A stretch of DNA of 64,000 nt from Octopus vulgaris (Eukaryota), in assembly GCA_951406725.2 (NCBI GenBank), contig OX597818.1, positions 10,416,001-10,480,000 on the forward strand, read 5' to 3'. This document shows, one piece after another, positions 2,561 through 61,549 of this stretch. Below the pieces are notes generated by a model. That model was not told where the DNA came from. It was given only the letters and a program-made list of their open reading frames with translations, and did no database searches. The position numbers and the translations under genes are program-made. Positions within the stretch are counted from its first letter, which is position 1. Each line of letters opens with the position of its first letter.

Positions 2561-2682
2561 AATAATTAAATAAGTTATTATTATTATTATTATTATTATT
2601 GTTGTCGTCGTCGTCGTCGTTGTTGTTGTTGTTGTTGTCGTCGTCGTCATCATCATCATCATCATCATCATTATCACTATTA

Positions 2683-3080
2683 GGCGGCGAACTGGCAGAA
2701 ACGTTAGCACGCCGGGCGAATTGCTTAACGGTATTTCGTCTGTCGTTAGGTTGTGAGTTCAAATTCCGCCGAGGTCGACTTTGCCTTTCATCCCTTCGGG
2801 CTCGATAAATTAAGTACCAGTTACGCACTGGGGTCGATGTAATCGACTTAATACCTATGTCTGTCCTTGTTTGTCCCCTCTATGTTTAGCCCCTTGTGGG
2901 TAATAAAGAAATAGGTATTTCGACCGTTGCTACGTTGTGAGTTCAAATTCCGCTGAGGTCGACTTTGTCTTTCATCCTTTCGGGGTCGATAAATTAAGTA
3001 CCAGTGAAACACTGAGGTCGATCATATCGACTAGTCTCCTCCCCCAACATTTCTAGGCCTTGTACCTTCTGTAGAAATGA
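2683..3080 (+). mobile_element. SINE family A composite: head, long-tail 184-bp unit, then headless old-tail body
   Basis: A box TGGCAGAAACG and B box GAGTTCAAATTCC. Junction GAAATA-GG-TATTTC at 2908-2921 lies exactly 184 bp after the first GGTATTTC at 2730. Confidence 0.9.
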
Positions 3081-11300: not shown

Positions 11301-12488
11301 ATCGCTATTTAGACGGGAAAAGGAAATTACTGAAACTACCGACTTTAATTTCTCGCTGTCCATTCTAATCTAACTTCGATGCCTAATCTATTAGGTGGCA
11401 GGAGGCAACTGAAAGAACATTAAATTACATATTAAGCTGCTTAATTCAGGCCAACTGTGCAATTTCTAACTAGAGACGTTTATGCTAAGCCTGGTCTACG
11501 TTCCAAACAACAGTGAGTTAAATGTTCAATAGATAAAGACTATCTCACACTAAAACTTATGTTAACCACTCTATTTGATCTACACAAGCCACCGTGTGTA
11601 CATCGTCAGCCTCACACAGAAAAGAAAAACAAGTAACTAGGTAATGAGAATCACGTGGCATACAAAAACAGCCTTGCTGCTAATGTGAGTTTAACTCATT
11701 TTGGTTAAATTAAAATTATAAACTATTATCACAATTAAAATACGCTGTGCAGCTTTTTGTATGCGTATGAGCGCTTGATGACCTTTTTTGCTCACTGAAT
11801 TTAAACTTAAATATATACATTGTTCTCTATGAATACTTTAACATATATGTTCATGCCTAAGAGATCAAAGATGTCCATGACCTTCAAATTAGCATTATCT
11901 ATAGCCAGCCCTAGCTGCGCGTTCATAACTTCACAACCTATAATCACAACGCTCTATAAATTATATGCGCTAATATGATAATGAAGTGTTATTAGAATAG
12001 CAATTACTTCAGTGTGTGAGAGAGAGACCAATATTATCATTCACATTTTATGGAAGAAAATATATGCTAATACTCACAACCTTTGATTCAAGCATAATAA
12101 TAATTTATAAATGCCTCATTGTACCTGCCTCATTGCCTCCGCTATATCTGCTTCAATACTGTACCTGCCTCATTGTCTTCGCTATACCAAGTAAACTCAA
12201 CAATGCTGATACAAGAATCACATTTTAACAGTTCGGAAGGTCATGCTTCATGCAGCTGCGTAATTCCTTAATATTTTATGTCTGTCTCGCCTCACAGTCG
12301 AGTGCATGCTGATGTTACTAATGGTAAATTTTATATTTGAATATTTAATATATCAAATATAGAGAATATTTGTTGACGAGACAAAGCATTATGGGTCAAC
12401 AACCGACAGTGGTTAGCTCTTTTCAGGTCTGTTAGATTAGAGTTGATAAGGTTTAATAAAGAAATAGCTATGGAGAATTCTAGAGTAA

Positions 12489-13495
12489 AGAGAAAGCTCG
12501 TCGGAGTCTAGAAGAGGTATTTAGGAAAGGCATAGCATCTGATATTCTGATGTCGTGACTGGCCGTGGATCAATTTTTCAACGCTAAGCACGAAAGTTAC
12601 GTTGTCAGTGCGTGCTCTGGTGGTAGAGGTGCAAAGTGTCAACAGGCAGATCGGAGGTGGGAAGCGTGCTACTTGGCTCCAAGCAGAAGCGTGCAGCTTC
12701 TCTGTGGCACTTTGCCCGCTGTTTGGGGCGGACGGAGAACGGCAGACTGGGGTGGCTTTATTGTCTACTTCGACTACTTGCCTCGGATGTCGGCTATAAA
12801 TGAGGAGTTCTGAAAAAAGCCGATAACAGGGGGCCAGAAGGAATTGGTGGTTCAGGATAAACTCTACAGTGCAGTCAGCCAAGCCTGCTGCACTCGTATG
12901 GTGCCCGAGCATTGCTGATTCTGGAGTTATGTCGAACAGATGCTATCGCATGAAAGGCGGATCTGGTTACCAGCTGACTCCATTAGATTACATCACCACC
13001 TTCCTTTCGCCAAGAAGGACAGGCATTTTTCTCTACCCGGTAGATATATCGAAGAAGGTTGAATGGTGGATGAGACTGAAAAGTTGAAAACAAACACTTT
13101 CTATTTCGGCTAAAACCTCATCGTGTTTTTGAAAGTAAAATTGTAAGATGAGTGGGAGGGTTTGCACCTTTGTTGAAAGATGAATGAATGTGGCTAGCGT
13201 GGCCTGAGAGAACGAACCTGCTCTAAGCTGACCCATGTAGAATAGAGAGAGAACGGATGGAAGAAAGGGCTTTTCAGTGGTACCCTTGGTGGTTGGGGTG
13301 ATGCTGAATCTTTGAGATTTTTCAGTTACCCCTGGGTGGTACACCACCTACTGGAGAATTTTGTTGTAAGAATTTTCTTCTTAAGCAATATTGTTTTTTT
13401 ATTGTTTACATGTGATTATGAAAATCCTTACACTGTATTTTGTCTTTGTATTGTCCTGAATATTCTTTTCGGTCCTAGTGGCCAATAAAGAAATC
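12489..13495 (+). mobile_element. Tx1/L1-clade LINE 3' fragment with intact 3' end, inserted at (AGT)n
   Basis: Translated pieces (ALVWCPSIAD, KKVEWWMRLK, FVER*MNVASVA) are homologous to the ORF2 C-terminus at 19031-19450. It ends ..GGTCCTAGTGGCCAATAAAGAAATC at 13495, followed by (AGT)n. Confidence 0.75.
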
Positions 13496-13555
<60 letters not shown>

Positions 13556-15261: not shown

Positions 15262-15622
15262 GACCAGCAATTTTGAGGGACTGATAGCATCAGAACTCAA
15301 CTGGTACTATTTTACCGACCCCGAAAAGATGAAAGGCACAGTCGACCCTGGTGAGATTTGAACTCAGAACATGAAGACATACGAAATACTTATTTCTTTA
15401 CTACCCACAAGGGGCTAAACACAGAGAGGACAAACAAGGACAGACAAACGGATTAAGTCGATTATATCAACACCAGTGCGTATCTGGTACTTATTTAATC
15501 GACCCCGAAAGGATGAAAGGCAAAGTCGACCTCGGCTGAATTTGAACTCAGAACGTAGCGGCAGACGAAATACCGCTTAGCTTTTCGCCCGGCGTGCTAA
15601 CGCTTCTGCCAACTCGCCGCCT
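15262..15622 (-). mobile_element. SINE family A composite: head, long-tail unit, then diverged old-tail body
   Basis: Same junction as 2908-2921, read on plus as GAAATA-CT-TATTTC at 15383-15396. Confidence 0.9.
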
Positions 15623-18047: not shown

Positions 18048-18730
18048 TGGAGATACTAATCTTGAAATATGAGGTAAAAGAAAAGACCCATTCTGCAAGC
18101 ATTGCAGAGCAGCTCTATGCACCCTGAACCACATTTTGACTGGATTACCTAGAACACTAGGAAAAGACTGATACTCATGGAGACATGACAAGGTTCTTGC
18201 AATAATTGCCAAGTAGACTGATCTGCAAAGGGTGAAGGCTAATAAACACCAGTCACCATCAAAGGGTATCAAATTCCTAAAGGAAGGTGACAACGTCCCC
18301 AAAGTGAAAGCAATGGAAGAGAAAACGTTTTTTTTTTTAATTTTACGTTCAACCTCATACTGAGCGGTGCAAGTACACCTAAGAGGCAGAGATGCCTTAG
18401 CAGAAGACAAATAGTGGTAACATCACTCCGACCAGACATGTTCCTGCTCTCAAGGAATACAAAAGCAATTATTGTGGTCACAATGTTCTGGGAGGACAGA
18501 CTCGATATTTCCCACCAGGTAAAGAAATCGAAATATCAGGATTTAGTCAACAAGGCCCTTCTCAAGGGCCCGCATGCAGCCTCCTTCCCCATTGAAATCA
18601 GTTATCACGCCTTTCCATCTGGGTCATTGCGGCGCTACTTCCTGCAGATTTGTGAAACCTAGACAACTGAAGAAAGTCATCAAGGATGTAGGTACGGCAG
18701 CTGAAACTAGCTCGAGATATGTTTCTTCAT
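18048..18730 (+). mobile_element. HERO/NeSL-like non-LTR retrotransposon 3' fragment (CCHC plus REL endonuclease)
   Basis: Translation DPFCKHC..TLNHILTG..YSWRHDKVL and ORF 18414-18662 TSLRPDMFLLS..TMFWEDRL..KKSKYQDL..FPIEI. Confidence 0.8.
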
Positions 18731-19030
18731 TAGCAACACAGGACCGAACGCGGAGGGGACAAAATGCAATGTGGAGCTTTTCTTTTGGCGACAAAAAACG
18801 GGGTGGGTGAAACAAAATTTCAATCAAAAGGGATCGTGGGAAAAAAATGCCGATCAATAGGGATCGTGTATCACAGAGATGTCATAAATGTAAAAGGGAA
18901 AAAGGATTAGGTTTATCCGTGGAAAGAAAAGCCTACGGAAAAGACCATGGTAACCTTGGGCAAAAATGTCAAGCAAAAAAAAACACACATTACAGTAAAT
19001 GACTCTCTTTTTTTCCTTTCTTTTTCTGGA

Positions 19031-22000
19031 TCATAGGATTATACTAAAGATGGCTCCGTCATTCACACGTGCCAACCTTGCTACATTCACCCATCTTTTA
19101 TTGAAACATTCACTAGTCAAAACTTCCTTCTCTACTCTAAAATTCCGCTTCATGTGTTACTTGAAGAAGTTGATGAGAGATGACCAGAGAGGAAAGTGTG
19201 TGTCTGTACATATTTCAGACGCGTCCGCCATACACATTCTTTCGCCATAGCCACAAGTACGATAAAAATGGCTCTTCCTTCCCGACTCAAGGAAGGAGGC
19301 GTGACAATATTGACGATAGACTCAGCTGATAAACCGACTCGTCACACACGCGATAGCAGTCGTTCGACATAGACCCACAGGTCGGAAATGGTTGAACACT
19401 GTACGAGTGCGTGCAGAACAGTTTCATCGATCTGACTGCATTCTGGGCAGGTCGGCCCGGTGTTTCTCGAGCCATACCTGTAAAGATTATTCCGAACAGG
19501 TAGCGCTTCTCGATAGCACTACCAGGCCAGGGATCTCTGGAAGTTGTCCATGGGTCCCGGCCCGAAAATCGTCTTGAACAGGCAAGTCAGGTATCCCACG
19601 TCGACGCCCAGGTTCGCCCCGAGATCGTCGTCGTACCTCCCCTCCACTAATCCCGTATAGAATGCTTTGGTTGTGATGCAGTCGCTCAAGGTCAACCCGG
19701 GACGGCATAGTTGCTCGAGAGCAATGCGACACACGCGGTACCATTCGCCCTTCCTTAGTCTCTATTTGATCCACGACTGCAGTTCGGCCATGGAGACGAG
19801 CTGCGAGAAAGCCCGCCTCACAAACGGCGACCGCACTTGTTCACCATCGTCTACGTAGATTCGGAAATGACGCAGTCTTAGCGCGTGTCTGTGCATCATC
19901 AACCACGGCATGCCCAGCCCTCCTTTTAGCGGGTGTTGGCAGCAAACTGATCGCCTGACCATCGGAACGCTTCCTTTTCACAAGAAGCGGAAGAAGATGC
20001 GTTCCAGTTTGGTGATGGTAGGGTCACGGCACGACGGTCAAACGGTAGAAGATGACGGACGCGATGTACGTGTTCGCCAACACCGCTTGACCTTTTAGGG
20101 ACAGCTTCCTCTCAGTCCATTGCCGGGCGAGAGTGACCACCCAAATCGTTATCTTGTCCAAGTTCTTCTCCGTTTGGAGGTCCGGACCAAACCAGACCCC
20201 GAGCAACTCGACCGGCCCGTCGATCCAGTGTCCCACGATGAAGGCATGGGCTTGCTTCTTCAGGTGCCGAGTCGCAAGCCCACTGACTTTTCCCGGTTGA
20301 TTTTCGCTCCTGTTACCACTTCGTACTATTTCAGTGTCTCGCCGACCAGCTCGACGTGGTTGTAGCTAGACACTATGACGGTGACGCCGTCCGCGTATGC
20401 GGAAATGCTCGTCTCACATCCCAATTCACGCGGGATGCCCCTCAGTGTCGCTAGCTTCCGCAGTAGTGGCTCGAGTATCAACACGTACAGAAGCGACGAG
20501 AGGGGGCATCCCTGACGGACCGAACGTGCAATGTCGAATGGACTCGATAGATGCCTATTCACGAGAATTACCGAACAGATGCCTTTGTATAAGGCAGCGA
20601 TCCAGCCGCGGAAAACGGGACCGAACCCAGCCGCTATGAGGACAGCCTCCAAGTATCGATGCTCTACTCTATCGAAAGCTTTGGATTGATCCAAATTGAT
20701 TTGTTCCCCACCCATGCCAGGTTCCTTTACTACCCTGTCTATGATGTAGCGCATGAGGGGGAGGTTGTCATAGATGCTCCGGCCGGCACGGCGAATGTTT
20801 GAGCCTTGTCGACAGTTTCTCGATGACAAACGTCAACCTCTTGGTTAGCACCTTAGCCAAAATTTTCAAATCTGCATTGAGTCGAGTGATGGGCCTAAAG
20901 TTATCTATTATGTCCCCCTTGTTTGGATCTTTCTTTAGCAGCGTTACGGCTCCTCGGCTCACAAAACCGGGGATGCTCGTAGGGCAGACCATCCAAACCC
21001 GGCGATCTGTCCCTCGCACACTCTGCCATCGCGTCTCGCACATCTGCCGCTGTGATGGTATTTTCGCAACACTCTGCCTCTCTTGCCGAGAGTCGTGGCA
21101 GGCTATGCAGATAGACACTGAAGTCCACCCTGCGTTCTCGCTCGCCACTTGTCCCGAAAATTCAGGCAAAGTGCTGCTGAAAGGCCTTACACATCTTACT
21201 AGGCTCGAGTAATTCGCGCCCCTGTTCATCCATCAGAGACCGAATAGTGGCTTGTTGCCCTGTTGCGCCTCCGCCACCCGGGCCTCTCACGCAGCTCTAA
21301 CACCTTCCATCCTTATAGCACACATCCTAGCTCTGACAACGCACCCTTCGTGTTTGGCGTTGAAGTGTTGGTCGAGGGCCAAACTCGCCGCCAATACGTC
21401 GGATGCGACGCCACTTCTAATCGCCTCTTCTAGCTTCTTTACTAGGGTCACCCTCTACTCTGTTTCTATCGATGGCTAGTGGTTTGCTATACCTAATCGC
21501 TTCCGCTTTTATTGCTCTCTTTAGCGCAAATCACCATTTGTTGTTGATGATGGCTCCCGTCAAAGACCTCTTCACTAGCGTGCTAATCCAGTTCTGAAAA
21601 CCTGTCTCGACGGGAAAGATGCGTTCAGTTTCCAGTAGCCGGGACCCTGCCTATGTTCTTTATCTAAGTCTAACCTGTCAGACAGTTGAAAGCGTCTGAG
21701 CAGGTCTTTGAGACATTTGCAACACTTCCTATTACTATTTCTGCCCACGTAGTCTAAATGCGTCTCCAACGTAGCATTCCAATCCTCCATTAAAAGTAAA
21801 GGACGAGACGTTCCTAGGAATACTTCCAGACGTCGAAAGAAAGGCGGTGAGTAGACTGATATGAGTCGAAAAGCACACCCGTTGTTGCCCTCGACATCCA
21901 GGACAACCAGTCTACCCTCCGGGTTTACGAATATTGTATTTGCTTCGAGATCCAGACTCTTACGAAAATGTTACCGCCGTGCCACTACCGCTCATTCTCG

Positions 22001-22187
22001 GCAGACAGGGAGAAAAATAAATGTTAAACTGTCCGCCAAACATGGACTTTAGGGCCCGTGGATTATGGAGTCTGGTCTCACTTATGGCTATGATTTCTAA
22101 CTCGTGTGACTTTACGTCATTTAAAAGGTACTCTTGTTTCTAAGGGGACCCAAAGCCACGCGCACTCACACAACCAATCTTCATCAT
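19031..22187 (-). pseudogene. LINE ORF2 (APE endonuclease plus reverse transcriptase), disrupted
   Basis: Start MMKIGCVSARGF; EDWNA; GPGYWKLNAS; RSPGLDGLPYE; NFRPITRLNADLKILAKVL; NLDQSKAFDRVEH; SVRQGCPLSSLLY; AYADGVT; LLGVWFG. Confidence 0.9.
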
Positions 22188-22522
22188 AATCTTAATGAGT
22201 TAAAACACAAACGAAAGGAACTGAGAGTTACTTACTGTTCGAAAGTTTTTGTTGCCTTCTCCTTCGGTTTGTCCTCGAGGAGATCACAATAGTTTTTTTA
22301 AAGGTATTTCTGTTAAGTTTGTTTTTGAGTTGATGTATTCCATCAACTCGGTGTTTTTAGTGTTTATGGCTGTGTGGATGGTTGCTAAATATGTTTGTGT
22401 GGTGTTGTTGTTGCTGTTGTTTGTGTTAGGGTTCGAAATGTCTTCGGGATTTGTTTATCTCACTGCTTTATTTGCATTTGGGTTTTTTTTCTTTTTGCTC
22501 CTCTTCCTCTTTCCTTTTCTGG

Positions 22523-23185
22523 CTACTTGCCATTCCTCTTACGACGAAATTTCTGAGGTATCGGAAGTGGGTAAGAGAATATTGTAAGCGTCGATGTGCG
22601 TTTGTTAAGTGGCTGTGTTGTTGTTTTCGTTGATGTTGGTTGTTGATTGTTTGTGTGTGGTGTATGAGATATAGTGGAAGGGGAATCCGTTTTTGCATTG
22701 TCTTTTGGCTTTTCTGTTTCTTTAGTTCTTGCTGTTGTTGGTGGTGGTGTTTTTCTAGGTGTTGTTGTATGTTCATTTGTTGGTGTTGGTGGGTTTGGTT
22801 GGTGCGTTTCTTTTGTCGTACTCCCTTTGCTTGTCTTCTGTGTTGCTAGTGGTGTGGGTAGTAAGGGTCCTTTTTCCTTTTCACTTTTTCCTTGTTGTGG
22901 TTGTTGTTGTTCTTTCGCTGTTTGGCACTTAGCTTTTAGGTGCTCTTCGCTGCCACACAAGTAACAGCGAGGCCTCCTACCTTTTACTACAACGTATAGG
23001 TTATGGCCGTCTGGAAGCTCAGTTTGGTGTGGGATGCTTTTGATTGAGTCCTGATCTATTTGCATCAGCGACTGAATAGTTTTTCCCGACCGCAACTGGA
23101 ACCACTCAGGTGAAGCGTATATGCAAAGGGGTAAACGCTTACGACCCAAAGATACCTGCTGACGATACAGAATTGTTTCCAGCAT
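22523..23185 (-). pseudogene. LINE ORF1 remnant with CCHC zinc knuckle
   Basis: VVVKGRRPRCYLCGSEEHLKAKC followed by a low-complexity K/T/P tail, upstream of ORF2. Confidence 0.8.
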
Positions 23186-24725
23186 TGCAATGGATTTAGA
23201 AGAGCTGGAAATACCTCTGAGTAACTCCTGTAGTTTTTGCTGGGGTCAAAGCATCTCTGGTGTTTATTTCAATTTAGATACTATCCAAGAAAAGGATATA
23301 GTTTATGAAGGTATCCTTTCCCAAAGCTGCACCTTCAGTACCAATTATATGAGCTTTAACACGTCAAGAACCAAGCACTTCAGAAAGCATTAAAACGCCA
23401 GCCATATAAAAACCAATACTAAAGTTAGTGCTAACGTATTTAATGCAGGCGATATTAAATACGTTATTGGTGGGGAAAATCAATATCAGTCAATGACTAC
23501 AGAAAAAGGATGATTACAACTGAAGCACTTTTGATCATAGATCCGATGAATCAAACTCCTCTGAAGACTAAACAGCAACAACAACAACAACAGATGTAGT
23601 CAAAGAAGGAGTCTCTTTGTTGTCGTTCGACTTACTAAAAGCAACAATCAAATCTCCCTCTCTGAATACAACCTACAACCTTAAATGTTCTAGTCACGCT
23701 ATGCCTGAAAAAAACATCGTTTGTTGCGACTGGAATGCTTTTGCTCACAGGATCAACGTTGACTGGGGCTACACACAAAATAACATTGAAAACATTTTCA
23801 CCGTAGAATGAAACTGTTGTATATGTGGACATTAATATTCATTGCTTCTCATCTGACTTTTGACATTTCCACTAAAATAATGATTACCCACCAACGGTTG
23901 GTGCCAAATCACTCACATTATAAGACAATAAGTTGATACGCTGTATTTGTCAAAGGATGGATGAACTCTGTTAAATTAACAGTAATCAACAGCTGTAAAA
24001 CCACTGGGAGTGATGGACCCCTTTCTCTCGTCACAGCATCTTTCTAGGAGCGGAACATTCTGATGTAAACTTGTAGTTTCACATGATTACTGGTTATCTC
24101 ACTTCGACAGCCACTAGGTGCAAACCACAGACACTCAGAGAGTGGTATACTGGTATATGTGTTGCACAAGCATTTATCAATACAATCTAGTGACATACAG
24201 ATATTTTCATGGCCACATCATTTGTCATTCCTTCAAGTGAAAACGCTAAGGCAATGGAAGAGTGGTGACACTTGCAGGCCTAATCTGTGAGAAGATTCAA
24301 CTTCAATTCGAAAACGTTAAAAACTTTAATCGGGCAACTGTTTATCCCACAACCTGACCTGACCAATCCAGTGAAAGTTGAACTTTTGTTTCATATCTTC
24401 TATGCCTCAAATTATGCATTTCTGCACCGGAACAGTCATCTGAGAGGTCATGGACAGGAAGTCAGACACGCCATTGACAACGAAGGCAGACAAGGAGACA
24501 CTAACCATCTGTGAAGATAGATTAAACATATGTATATAAACAGGATAAGAGGAGATACATGGGATAGAGACACATTGATGAGCTCACAGAATGTGTGACT
24601 GTCAGCCACTTTTGCAGAACCGCTAGGTTACGGAGAAGTAAACACACCAACACCGGTTTTCAAGCGATGGTGGAGGACAAACGTAGACATAAAGATACCA
24701 CACACACACACACACACATACGTAC

Positions 24726-28892: not shown

Positions 28893-29100
28893 AGACGAGC
28901 TAACAGAATCGTTAGCAACCCGAGCGAAATTCTGAGCGGTATTTCATCTGCCGCTACGTTTCTGAGTTCAAATTCCGCCGAAGTTGACTTTGCCTTTCAT
29001 CCTTTCGAGGATGATGACTTAAGTACCAGTGAAACACTGGGGTCGATGTAATCGAATATCACCCTCTCCCAAATTTCAGGCCTTGTGCCTATAGTAGAAA
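28893..29100 (+). mobile_element. SINE family A, old-tail copy
   Basis: Head, B box, central domain and ..CAAATTTCAGGCCTTGTGCC tail. Confidence 0.9.
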
Positions 29101-29938
29101 AGATGAAAGGCAAAGTCGACCTCGGCGGAATTTGAACTCAGAACGTAACAGCAGACGAAATACCTATTTCTTTACTACCCACAAGGGGTTAAACACAGAG
29201 AAGACAAACAAGGACAGACAGACGGATTAAGTCGATTATACCGACCCCAGTGCGTAACTGGTACTTATTTAATCGACCCCGAAAGGATGAAAGGCAGAGT
29301 CGACCTCGGCGAAATTTGAACTCAGAACGTAACAGTAGACGAAATACTTATTTCTTTATTACCCACAAGGGGCTAAACACAGAGGGGACAAACAAGGACA
29401 GACATGGGCATTAAGTCGATTACATCGACCCAGTGCGTAACTGGTACTTAATTTATCGACCCCGATGAAAGGCAAAGTCGACCTCGGCGGAATTTGAACT
29501 CAGAACGTAACAGCAGACGAAATACCTATTTCTTTACTACCCACAAGGGGTTAAACACAGAGGAGACAAACAAGGACAGACAGACGGATTAAGTCGATTA
29601 TACCGACCCCAGTGCGTAACTGGTACTTGTTTAATCGACCCCGAAAGGATGAAAGGCAGAGTCGACCTCGGCGGAATTTGAACTCAGAACGTAACAGTAG
29701 ACGAAATACTTATTTCTTTATTACCCACAAGGGGCTAAACACAGAGGGGACAAACAAGGACAGACATGGGTATTAAGTCGATTACATCGACCCCAGTGCG
29801 TAACTGGTACTTAATTTATCGACCCCGAAAGGATGAAAGGCAAAGTCGACCTCGGCGGAATTTGAACTCAGAACGTAGCAGCAGTTGAAATACCGCTAAG
29901 CATTTCGCCCGGCGTGCTAACGATTCAGCCAGCTCGCC
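29101..29938 (-). repeat. Tandem array of SINE A long-tail units (one head, four units of about 184 bp, one partial), alternating ABAB variants
   Basis: Junction GAAATA-NN-TATTTC starts at 29157, 29341, 29519 and 29703, and the head site is at 29887 (spacings 184, 178, 184, 184). Confidence 0.92.
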
Positions 29939-30238
29939 GGGATTAGGGCAATATTGCCATCAGCAAGTGGTAAAAGGGTATCGAAACAAGGCACCCAGCA
30001 GATTCACCCAACTTGACATTAACACAAGGCCAGTCATCACGGTGTTGACGCAATTTGGTCAGCTGATATAGAATTTTGATGCTTGTTAGCATTTGTCGTC
30101 TACGCGAAATGGTATTTCAGGAAGTTCACCACAGTTTACAGCGTTATGAACCACACTACCAGGTTAGATAGGTTGTGCTAATTAATCTGTGTGTTTGTGT
30201 ACACATATGTATATAAATATGAATGTATATATATATGG

Positions 30239-35340: not shown

Positions 35341-35646
35341 ATAAAAATGAACAAATTTAGTTGAGTTTAACCTTAAAAACTATCTAAACAGCCTAAACCA
35401 CATATCAAAGTTAAACAACCGTAAATCCAACAGTATTTCATATAGCCTTTTAGGCAAAAACTGCCTTACTGGCAATGGCGAAAAAAATAAACACTATCTA
35501 CTTTGGCGCAATACACAGGAGTAACAACTTTGGCAGCGTCTTCAAGACAAGACAATGCCAAACATAGGTTTCATGACAATGTATCATCTTCTAACTAGGT
35601 AGGACCATTTAAGACAGTGCGCGCGAGAGAAGGGAGATAGCTTCTT

Positions 35647-35876
35647 ATTTATTTATTGCCCACAGGGGCTGAATATAGAGGGGACAAACAAGGACAGACA
35701 AAGGGATTAAGTCGATTACATCGACTCCAGTGCGTAACTGGTACTTAATTTATCGACCCCGAAAGGATGAAAAGCAAAGTCGACCTCGGAGGAATTTGAA
35801 CTCAGAACGTAACGGCAGACGAAATCCCGCTTAGCATTTCGCCCGACGTGTTAACGATTCTGCCAGCTCGCCGCCT
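35647..35876 (-). mobile_element. SINE family A, long (Tx1-like) tail, monomeric
   Basis: Head plus body plus TGTCTGTCCTTGTTTGTCCCCTCT..GCCCCTGTGGGCAATAAA tail, with no second body. Confidence 0.88.
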
Positions 35877-49341: not shown

Positions 49342-49534
49342 TAGAAAAATGAAATATCTTTTTATGGATAATTCGTTTAACCGATACCTGGGTAGCAAAT
49401 TCACATCAGAAATAACACGGTTGAAGTTACGTGCCTAGGGCAGAGACTACGTGTTTTCGTGTGGAAATTTGTGTGTATTTTTATAAAATTTATGAATAAA
49501 TTCAAGAATGGAGTTGAACGACAAATTAACAAAT

Positions 49535-49633
49535 TTCCTTTATTTTCGACATATGTTTCGAAGGCTGCATATTCCTAATTGCGAAGGAATAAGGAGTACA
49601 TTATGCCGCTTTCTCATCAGGAAAAACAAGGAA
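49535..49633 (-). ncRNA. Mirror copy of the canonical hammerhead motif
   Basis: TCATCAG at 49614-49620 and GACATATGTTTC at 49548-49559 are the reverse complements of the core. Confidence 0.85.
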
Positions 49634-49871
49634 TTTATTTATGTCAACATCAAGATTCACAAAAACTTTTAGATGACTGCTCTCACGGAGCGCATAGCGA
49701 TAATGAGTGTCTCTTTAATATTCCTTTATAAGGAGTGACGTCGAATTTTCTACATTCAACCAGTTTGACGTCACTCCTTATAAAGGAATATTAAAGAGAC
49801 ACTCATTATCGCTATGCGCTCCGTGAGAGCAGTCATCTAAAAGTGTTTGTGAATCTTGATGTTGACATAAA

Positions 49872-49970
49872 TTCCTTGTTTTTCCTGATGAGAAAGCGGC
49901 ATAATGTACTCCTTATTCCTTCACAATTAGGAATATGCAGCCTTCGAAACATATGTCGAAAATAAAGGAA
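49872..49970 (+). ncRNA. Type I hammerhead ribozyme motif, canonical core
   Basis: Stem I TTCCTTGTTTTTC/GAAAATAAAGGAA; CTGATGA at 49885-49891; extended stem II GAAAGCGGCATA/TATGCAGCCTTC; GAAA at 49946-49949; palindromic stem III ACATATGT; GTC cut site after 49957. Confidence 0.85.
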
Positions 49971-50178
49971 ATTTGTTAATTTGTCGTTCAACTCCATTCT
50001 TTCATTTATTCATATATATATATATATATATATAATTCAAATAATAAGGGAGATAAATTGAATATTAATTTGATTAATATCAGTTTAAAACCAGTAGCCA
50101 AGCGTAGAAAAAATCTGAAAAATCAGAAAAAATACACACACACATATATATATATGTGGGGGGTATGTATATATATAA

Positions 50179-60392: not shown

Positions 60393-60464
60393 TGCGTCGA
60401 CCGGGTGTCGAACCTGAATCGACTGCTTGGAAGGCAAGTATGCTAACTGTTACACCACCAACAC
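60393..60464 (-). pseudogene. tRNA-Gly(TCC) pseudogene
   Basis: Minus strand GTGTTGGTGGTGTAACAGTTAGCATACTTGCCTTCCAAGCAGTCGATTCAGGTTCGACACCCGGTCGACGCA aligns end to end with eukaryotic tRNA-Gly(TCC), but the D-loop GG is lost and the anticodon and T stems have mismatches. Confidence 0.8.
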
Positions 60465-61464: not shown

Positions 61465-61525
61465 GATTTCTTTTATTGGCCACCAGAGAGAATACTGAGA
61501 GGGACAATACAAAGACAGACATAAA
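61465..61525 (-). mobile_element. Isolated Tx1-type LINE 3' tail inserted at (ATC)n
   Basis: Minus strand ATGTCTGTCTTTGTATTGTCCCTCTC..GGTGGCCAATAAAAGAAATC, homologous to 13441-13495. Confidence 0.7.
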
Positions 61526-61549
61526 GAGTGGCGGTACTTATAACTATAT

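Follow-up and report, generated by a model that had tools for sequence, protein, structure and literature searches.

How a short interspersed element of the octopus genome acquired a tail resembling that of a LINE, and whether a preference for particular insertion sites came with it, are the questions raised by a 64,000-nucleotide stretch of Octopus vulgaris DNA (contig OX597818.1, positions 10,416,001 to 10,480,000; hereafter the window), part of a 2.8-Gb animal genome with many microsatellites and SINEs. A long-tail unit of SINE family A (2682-2913, plus strand, variant A/TA) has a head with A-box- and B-box-like motifs (judged by eye against the consensus), a body and a LINE-derived tail at 2857-2913, and its tail runs directly into the remainder (+49 to the end) of a short-tail SINE A host at 2914-3080. 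The corresponding site within the inserted unit itself, SINE +49 onward, lies at 2730-2745 between the two box-like motifs. SINE A may bear a resemblance to the central domain of the Meta superfamily. An Rfam scan of the window gave no tRNA match at the SINE heads and one match only, away from the tails; this weak match (36 bits), at 60393-60464 on the minus strand, is probably the head of another SINE. Elsewhere in the window an inverted repeat of 151 nt arms, 97% complementary and 228 nt apart (49488-50017), is possibly a young MITE.

The original prediction grouped three tails, and all were located: that of the SINE, that of a LINE at 13439-13494 (plus strand, termed here the 13441 LINE) and an orphan at 61466-61522 (minus strand). 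Over the 45 nt before AATAAA both the LINE tail (z 3.3, p 0.004) and the orphan tail (z 6.2) resemble the SINE tail beyond shuffled sequences, and the window holds a fourth related tail, absent from that grouping, at the end of a decayed Tx1-like LINE of a (TATC)n-ending family (18721-23245, minus strand). Just 5' of AATAAA the tails contain a putative four-pair hairpin with a 5-nt loop (2889-2901 in the SINE, 13471-13483 in the 13441 LINE). Across 21 tails 81% of the cells in this stem are paired, against 72% after shuffling (1 of 500 shuffles was as high) and 17-45% in slid controls. Three of the four pairs vary on both sides, as they also do in 49/500 shuffles, the stem having only four pairs and the sequences being related. 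By folding energy the hairpin does not stand out (z -0.4 for the SINE tail), and it is absent from the best fold of the orphan tail. The terminal stem-loop said to be common to the tails is thus upheld by pair counts but not by folding energies.

In its literal form the original prediction held that the 13441 lineage itself gave the SINE both its tail and an RGTA specificity. The tail likeness above chance is in its favour, as is the hairpin register that the 13441 and SINE tails have in common. The 13441 tail is a true LINE end because pieces of a decayed, internally deleted ORF2 lie upstream within 12502-13225 (about 12502-12828 and 12844-13225 by tblastn), and the orphan is ~80 bp of Tx1-like 3' end (61466-61545, minus strand), the extreme 5'-truncated terminus of an ATT/ATC-ending family whose relatives bear ORF2 upstream. 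The sequence AATAAAGAAAT at 12455, which borders the ORF2 remnant on its upstream side, lacks the tail hairpin and was set aside. Against a donor role, the 13441 tail matches only 24 of the last 35 nt of the SINE compared with 34 for the LINE family D described below, and the ORF2 remnant finds its best matches among the genome's own families outside the clade of D and a second family, F (ATT 122 and TATC 113 bits, F 28). RGTA follows none of the 25 located ends of 13441 relatives (29 loci), none of which is at SINE +49, and begins the flank in 0/29 relatives of the orphan and 0/28 of the 18721 LINE. The RGTA at 13495 that had seemed common to the LINE and the SINE junctions is a coincidence, its source being an (AGT)20 run at 13496-13555 (plus strand). 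That this lineage was the donor is therefore scarcely credible.

The 13441 LINE and the orphan are instead distant cousins of the SINE-tail donors, with the same tail fold and with microsatellite ends. The 13441 lineage terminates in ATT, ATC or AGT runs, its relatives having ATT/ATC in 16/25 cases, and microsatellite flanks follow 25/29 ends in another ATT family and 20/28 in the TATC family. These lineages, with their ATT/ATC or TATC ends, invite comparison with Kibi, Koshi and the other microsatellite-targeting Tx1 elements described in the relevant portion of PMC4494074, whose repeat units differ. In three clusters (L146-L155, G000 C1) young TATC-ending Tx1-like LINEs, their 1149-aa ORF2 intact, follow one another head to tail, every copy ending in a (TATC)n run that leads into the next, and a further Tx1-like family (L294, L448, L450) ends in (TC)n, resembling the target described for Kibi.

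Candidate donors came from searching with the Pfam model of the C-terminal zinc knuckle and from follow-up searches, which revealed that many Tx1-like families in the genome bear variants of the SINE tail. The LINEs are of L1/Tx1 type, with ORF1 and an ORF2 encoding an APE endonuclease, reverse transcriptase and zinc knuckle and no RNase H; the ORF2 of L136, L276 and L432 contains Exo_endo_phos, RVT_1 and zf-RVT domains only, with ORF1 frames upstream, and the best-scoring source-named match is 'Transposon TX1 uncharacterized 149 kDa protein' (P0014, 31%, E 2e-90). In best-matching examples picked by hand, identity to the last 35 nt of the SINE tail is 34 (L302) and 33 (L273) for family D, 33 for D2, 32 for G and 30 for F, against 27 for the TATC family, 27 for E and 24 for the orphan. 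Family E (L326) is identical to the SINE tail over the first 28 nt, so the 5' half of the tail fits E better than D. The SINE and these LINEs have a 3' tail in common, as in stringent-type LINE/SINE pairs, and the long tail is, as predicted, a Tx1-like LINE tail carried by autonomous elements, family F being intact. A LINE with the whole 56-nt tail was not found among the families retrieved in this non-exhaustive search and may exist unseen. The TATC family, an early candidate partner, was dropped once the D and E tails proved closer. A quick tree, built without family E and with long outgroup branches, unites D, D2, D3, H and F in one clade (SH-aLRT 100) and places the ATT and TATC families outside it; the endonuclease domains of D and F are 69% identical. 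From the tail identities, this tree and the protein scores of the 13441 remnant, the SINE is likely to have received its tail from the D/F clade, or else from an element related to D and E.

The SINE itself is abundant and selective in where it lands. A 28-nt motif of its tail has 29,685 exact matches in the genome (control 0). Sampling of 251 matches, 238 of them distinct and 231 with flank, left 187 with a SINE body upstream, a set enriched for tails matching the motif; the 44 rows left out of the counts were LINE tails and two truncated SINEs. The 187 tails run into SINE +49 in 68 cases, +16 in 6, other SINE positions in 3 and other DNA in 110. Duplications, mostly of 10-20 bp, flank 61 of the 110 non-SINE insertions compared with 29 of 2000 shuffled pairs, and 49 of the 61 begin within one base of the tail end. 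Their upstream copy, i.e. the pre-existing target, reads H|GGTAT in 31 (never with G before), H|TATA in 17 and AGA in 3. In 144 kb of unselected DNA only 9 of 175 H-GGTAT sites are SINE +49, as against 68 of 128 GGTA-class tails, part of this excess coming from multi-unit arrays. Both kinds of flank occur in the window, where a long-tail SINE of the G/TG variant is followed by its host's SINE +49 (15300-15622, minus strand) and a single long-tail SINE of the CA variant by an AGA-type flank (35646-35876, minus strand). At another locus (L066:1330-1700) a long-tail SINE stands beside antisense SINE A, the duplication starting at GGTAC on the host's other strand, and antisense SINE A sequence also adjoins a long-tail SINE at 29000-29100 of the window.

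A check for tail-bearing LINEs at about +48 of SINE A had been suggested, and a third family, F, provides them. Forty of 120 further matches were fetched across the score range, irrespective of SINE context, and gave 13 ends from family F or older F-like copies; one more lies in locus L315. Each of the 14 ends runs into SINE A at +49/50, with long flanks in 13 and only 17 nt visible in L315. Three full-length copies, 98.8-99.2% alike, encode an intact 1134-aa ORF2 with endonuclease, reverse transcriptase and zinc knuckle, and 5' of each lies the SINE head as far as about +63. The LINE ends are 99.1% alike whereas identity among the SINEs downstream is only 92.7%, with differences at subfamily positions; the copies therefore inserted independently, and a composite unit made of F and its downstream SINE was rejected. 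All four F 5' flanks examined carry one head variant, which is found in 25/97 heads. More than 20% of flanks fall in one repeat type, the threshold for a Tx1 target preference given in the consulted part of PMC4494074, in the F, TATC and ATT families alike. Contigs from two presumed-RNA runs pass the F end by 34-41 nt into the SINE; no transcript end is visible in them and they were not used as evidence. Locus L315:1740-3241 consists of three nested layers, a D copy at +15 of a SINE head leading into an internally deleted F (~1.4 kb) and then SINE +50.

Family D as a whole has no single target. In one subfamily AGAA follows the tail in 8/9 copies, compared with 0/21 of the remaining D, and the two D copies at SINE +15/16 both belong to it; D subfamilies with 3' ends 82-96% alike differ strongly in their flanks. 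Other D sublineages have AGTGTG, CATA or ACTT after the tail, a further linkage of flank and lineage, and TGGAT comes after every family G end (L436, L440, L441, L443). Copies of D2 and some of D (L356-L385, L262, L310) often precede a common sequence and recur at intervals of ~5 kb, as though stacked at the 5' end of related LINEs.

SINE units also occur in tandem, as in the window array at 29092-29943 (minus strand) of one headed unit, three units that run from +49 to the tail and are by turns of the TA and TG variants, and a broken +49 piece. Of 46 headed units that precede a +49 or +16 junction, only 2 show another head upstream, so the 5' junction is usually seamless, and we infer that the cDNA is likely to have annealed to the head of the host. 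Such arrays could have been built mostly by the copying of multimeric masters as a whole, with DNA slippage or unequal exchange, rather than by insertion into SINEs. That 10 of the 61 duplications enclose 2-7 units fits either nested insertion or copying of a multimeric RNA, and the adjacent units of L188 and L074, which have private changes in common and are 96-99% alike, speak for such an origin, as does the alternation of TA and TG units in the window. Most adjacent units are, however, only 86-96% alike compared with 89% between loci, two pairs at 98-99% being the exceptions, so local duplication is a minor source; 23 of 66 scorable +49 junctions lead to no further long tail, many of them into a short-tail host; copies of families F and D are likewise found at +49 and +16; and the first dimer would still require an insertion at +49. 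Copying or slippage is therefore likely to contribute to the arrays without replacing targeting, and as their main origin we regard it as improbable.

What selects the site is the more difficult question. The original prediction was that the SINE inherited its specificity with the Tx1 endonuclease, and this is supported in so far as family F lies strictly at SINE +49/50, but it does not of itself account for a target motif that follows variants internal to the SINE, or for a +49 base that is not the same at SINE and F insertions. Targets are of the GGTA class in 51 of 52 A/TA copies and in 1 of 14 C/CA copies, and, for non-SINE targets only, in 35/39 TA tails against 6/35 CA tails (p 1.5e-10), the classes having been set after viewing the data and copies of one master not being independent. 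In six GGTA-class copies the letters after the tail are unlike the upstream target, and five of the six read AG to AGGTAG. All this is most simply read as an RNA that extends beyond the tail, its post-tail letters pairing with, and sometimes overwriting, the target. Taken together, these sequence comparisons lead us to favour, as the probable course of events, capture of a D/F-clade tail by the SINE, copying of the SINE by the LINE proteins and some help from pairing of the RNA flank in the choice of site. The ORF2 protein would bind the tail hairpin of a transcript extending beyond the tail into the donor's flank, and reverse transcription would be primed where 4-15 nt of that flank pair with the nicked DNA strand. 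As a copy once landed at +49 has GGUAUUUCG after its tail, its offspring would prefer GGTAT, and above all other SINE heads. The cDNA end would anneal to the homologous host head, giving single-headed arrays with the A and B boxes in line, and the product could then be transcribed again.

The same data may be read without any guiding RNA, if each SINE variant is mobilised by a Tx1 family of its own that has a distinct sequence-specific endonuclease, the F lineage serving +49 and GGTA, the D-AGAA subfamily AGA and +16, and another family TATA. The strict targeting by F (14/14) agrees with this, as does the D-AGAA subfamily, whose tail resembles the CA variant and which has its flank too. The consulted part of PMC4494074 ascribes Tx1 target choice chiefly to the endonuclease, and in its section 16 separate Tx1 carriers were argued for separate SINEU families. 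Indeed, the linked variants lie partly in the tail and could select different LINE carriers, the 31% difference between the D and F endonuclease domains is enough for distinct specificities, and 49 of the 61 duplications need no RNA-only letters past the last A of the tail. Other observations are awkward for this account. The +49 base is C in 30/97 long-tail heads, in 0/68 SINE junctions and in 11/12 young F junctions, unexpected if the F protein served both, and plain GGTA-type non-SINE sites were used by 58/128 SINE tails but by 0/14 of F. The very different flanks of closely similar D subfamilies, and the copies bearing target-like letters that are not in the target, are likewise not anticipated by it. 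A point against the reading with RNA pairing is that F copies are 99% alike compared with 89% pairwise for most SINE copies, so today's younger F cannot have made all of the SINEs and older F-like elements, of which L428 and L452 are ends, are required. We consider specificity set by the endonucleases alone unlikely, and the reading in which RNA pairing assists remains the one we prefer. Its stronger form, a target memory in cis whereby the donor's downstream flank, read into the RNA, is a short guide for the next insertion, is plausible but falls somewhat short of an even chance.

Known systems, compared here from portions of the cited texts, resemble the octopus pair in part. The nearest known case is that of crocodilian Tx1-Mar and SINEU (Kojima 2015, PMC4494074), in which a Tx1 LINE and a SINE also favour one site within a different repeat and SINEs are inserted in tandem. 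The crocodilian elements target a third element, Mariner-N4_AMi, whereas here the target is the passenger SINE itself; the partnership there was inferred from common targets and 5' heads, and SINEU ends in poly(A), while here a poly(A)-less hairpin tail is in common and the target motif tracks cis variants. In the maize LINE1-1_ZM group and Chlamydomonas SINEX-3_CR/L1-1_CR (Ohshima 2012, PMC3472496; PMC3747384) an L1-clade LINE and a SINE have a ~50-nt hairpin tail in common, with compensatory stem changes; these pairs are from plants and algae, the algal pair ends in poly(A), and no self-targeting is described in the portions of the two papers examined. Precedent for RNA-target pairing comes from SART1Bm and R1Bm (PMC7265360), where target-like letters 3' of a recognised RNA structure are proposed to anneal and raise accuracy, as here. 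Those elements belong to the R1 clade and have a fixed telomere or rDNA target, pairing refining a site set by the endonuclease; in the octopus the flank appears to vary between sublineages along with the target. Head-to-tail multimers, some inside one duplication, are known from bivalve SINE arrays (PMC11481361) and squamate SINE-derived satellites (PMC10702118), and the portions of these texts examined describe no site-specific LINE at the junctions. Octopus repeat annotation lists 80 L1-Tx1 families, 13 of them recently active, and leaves most active SINEs unclassified (PMC13282606); the words target, nested, partner and tail do not occur in its main text as searched. A Tx1 LINE that targets its own tail-sharing SINE, or this octopus pair, was not found in the literature searched, which for the most part lay outside subscription papers and Repbase.

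In these octopus elements an animal Tx1-like LINE and a SINE are linked through a structured tail that lacks poly(A), and a LINE inserts into the SINE that is probably its own passenger. They make testable how APE-type site specificity is shared between the endonuclease and RNA-DNA pairing at priming, and young intact copies that are 99% alike, together with natural sublineages that have different flanks, offer ready comparisons. If the flank does steer insertion, this would bear on programmable retrotransposon insertion tools. Were a target memory in cis to operate, a single insertion at a new kind of site could change the specificity, and a SINE that has landed in its own head would become self-homing, building landing pads for a dedicated LINE.
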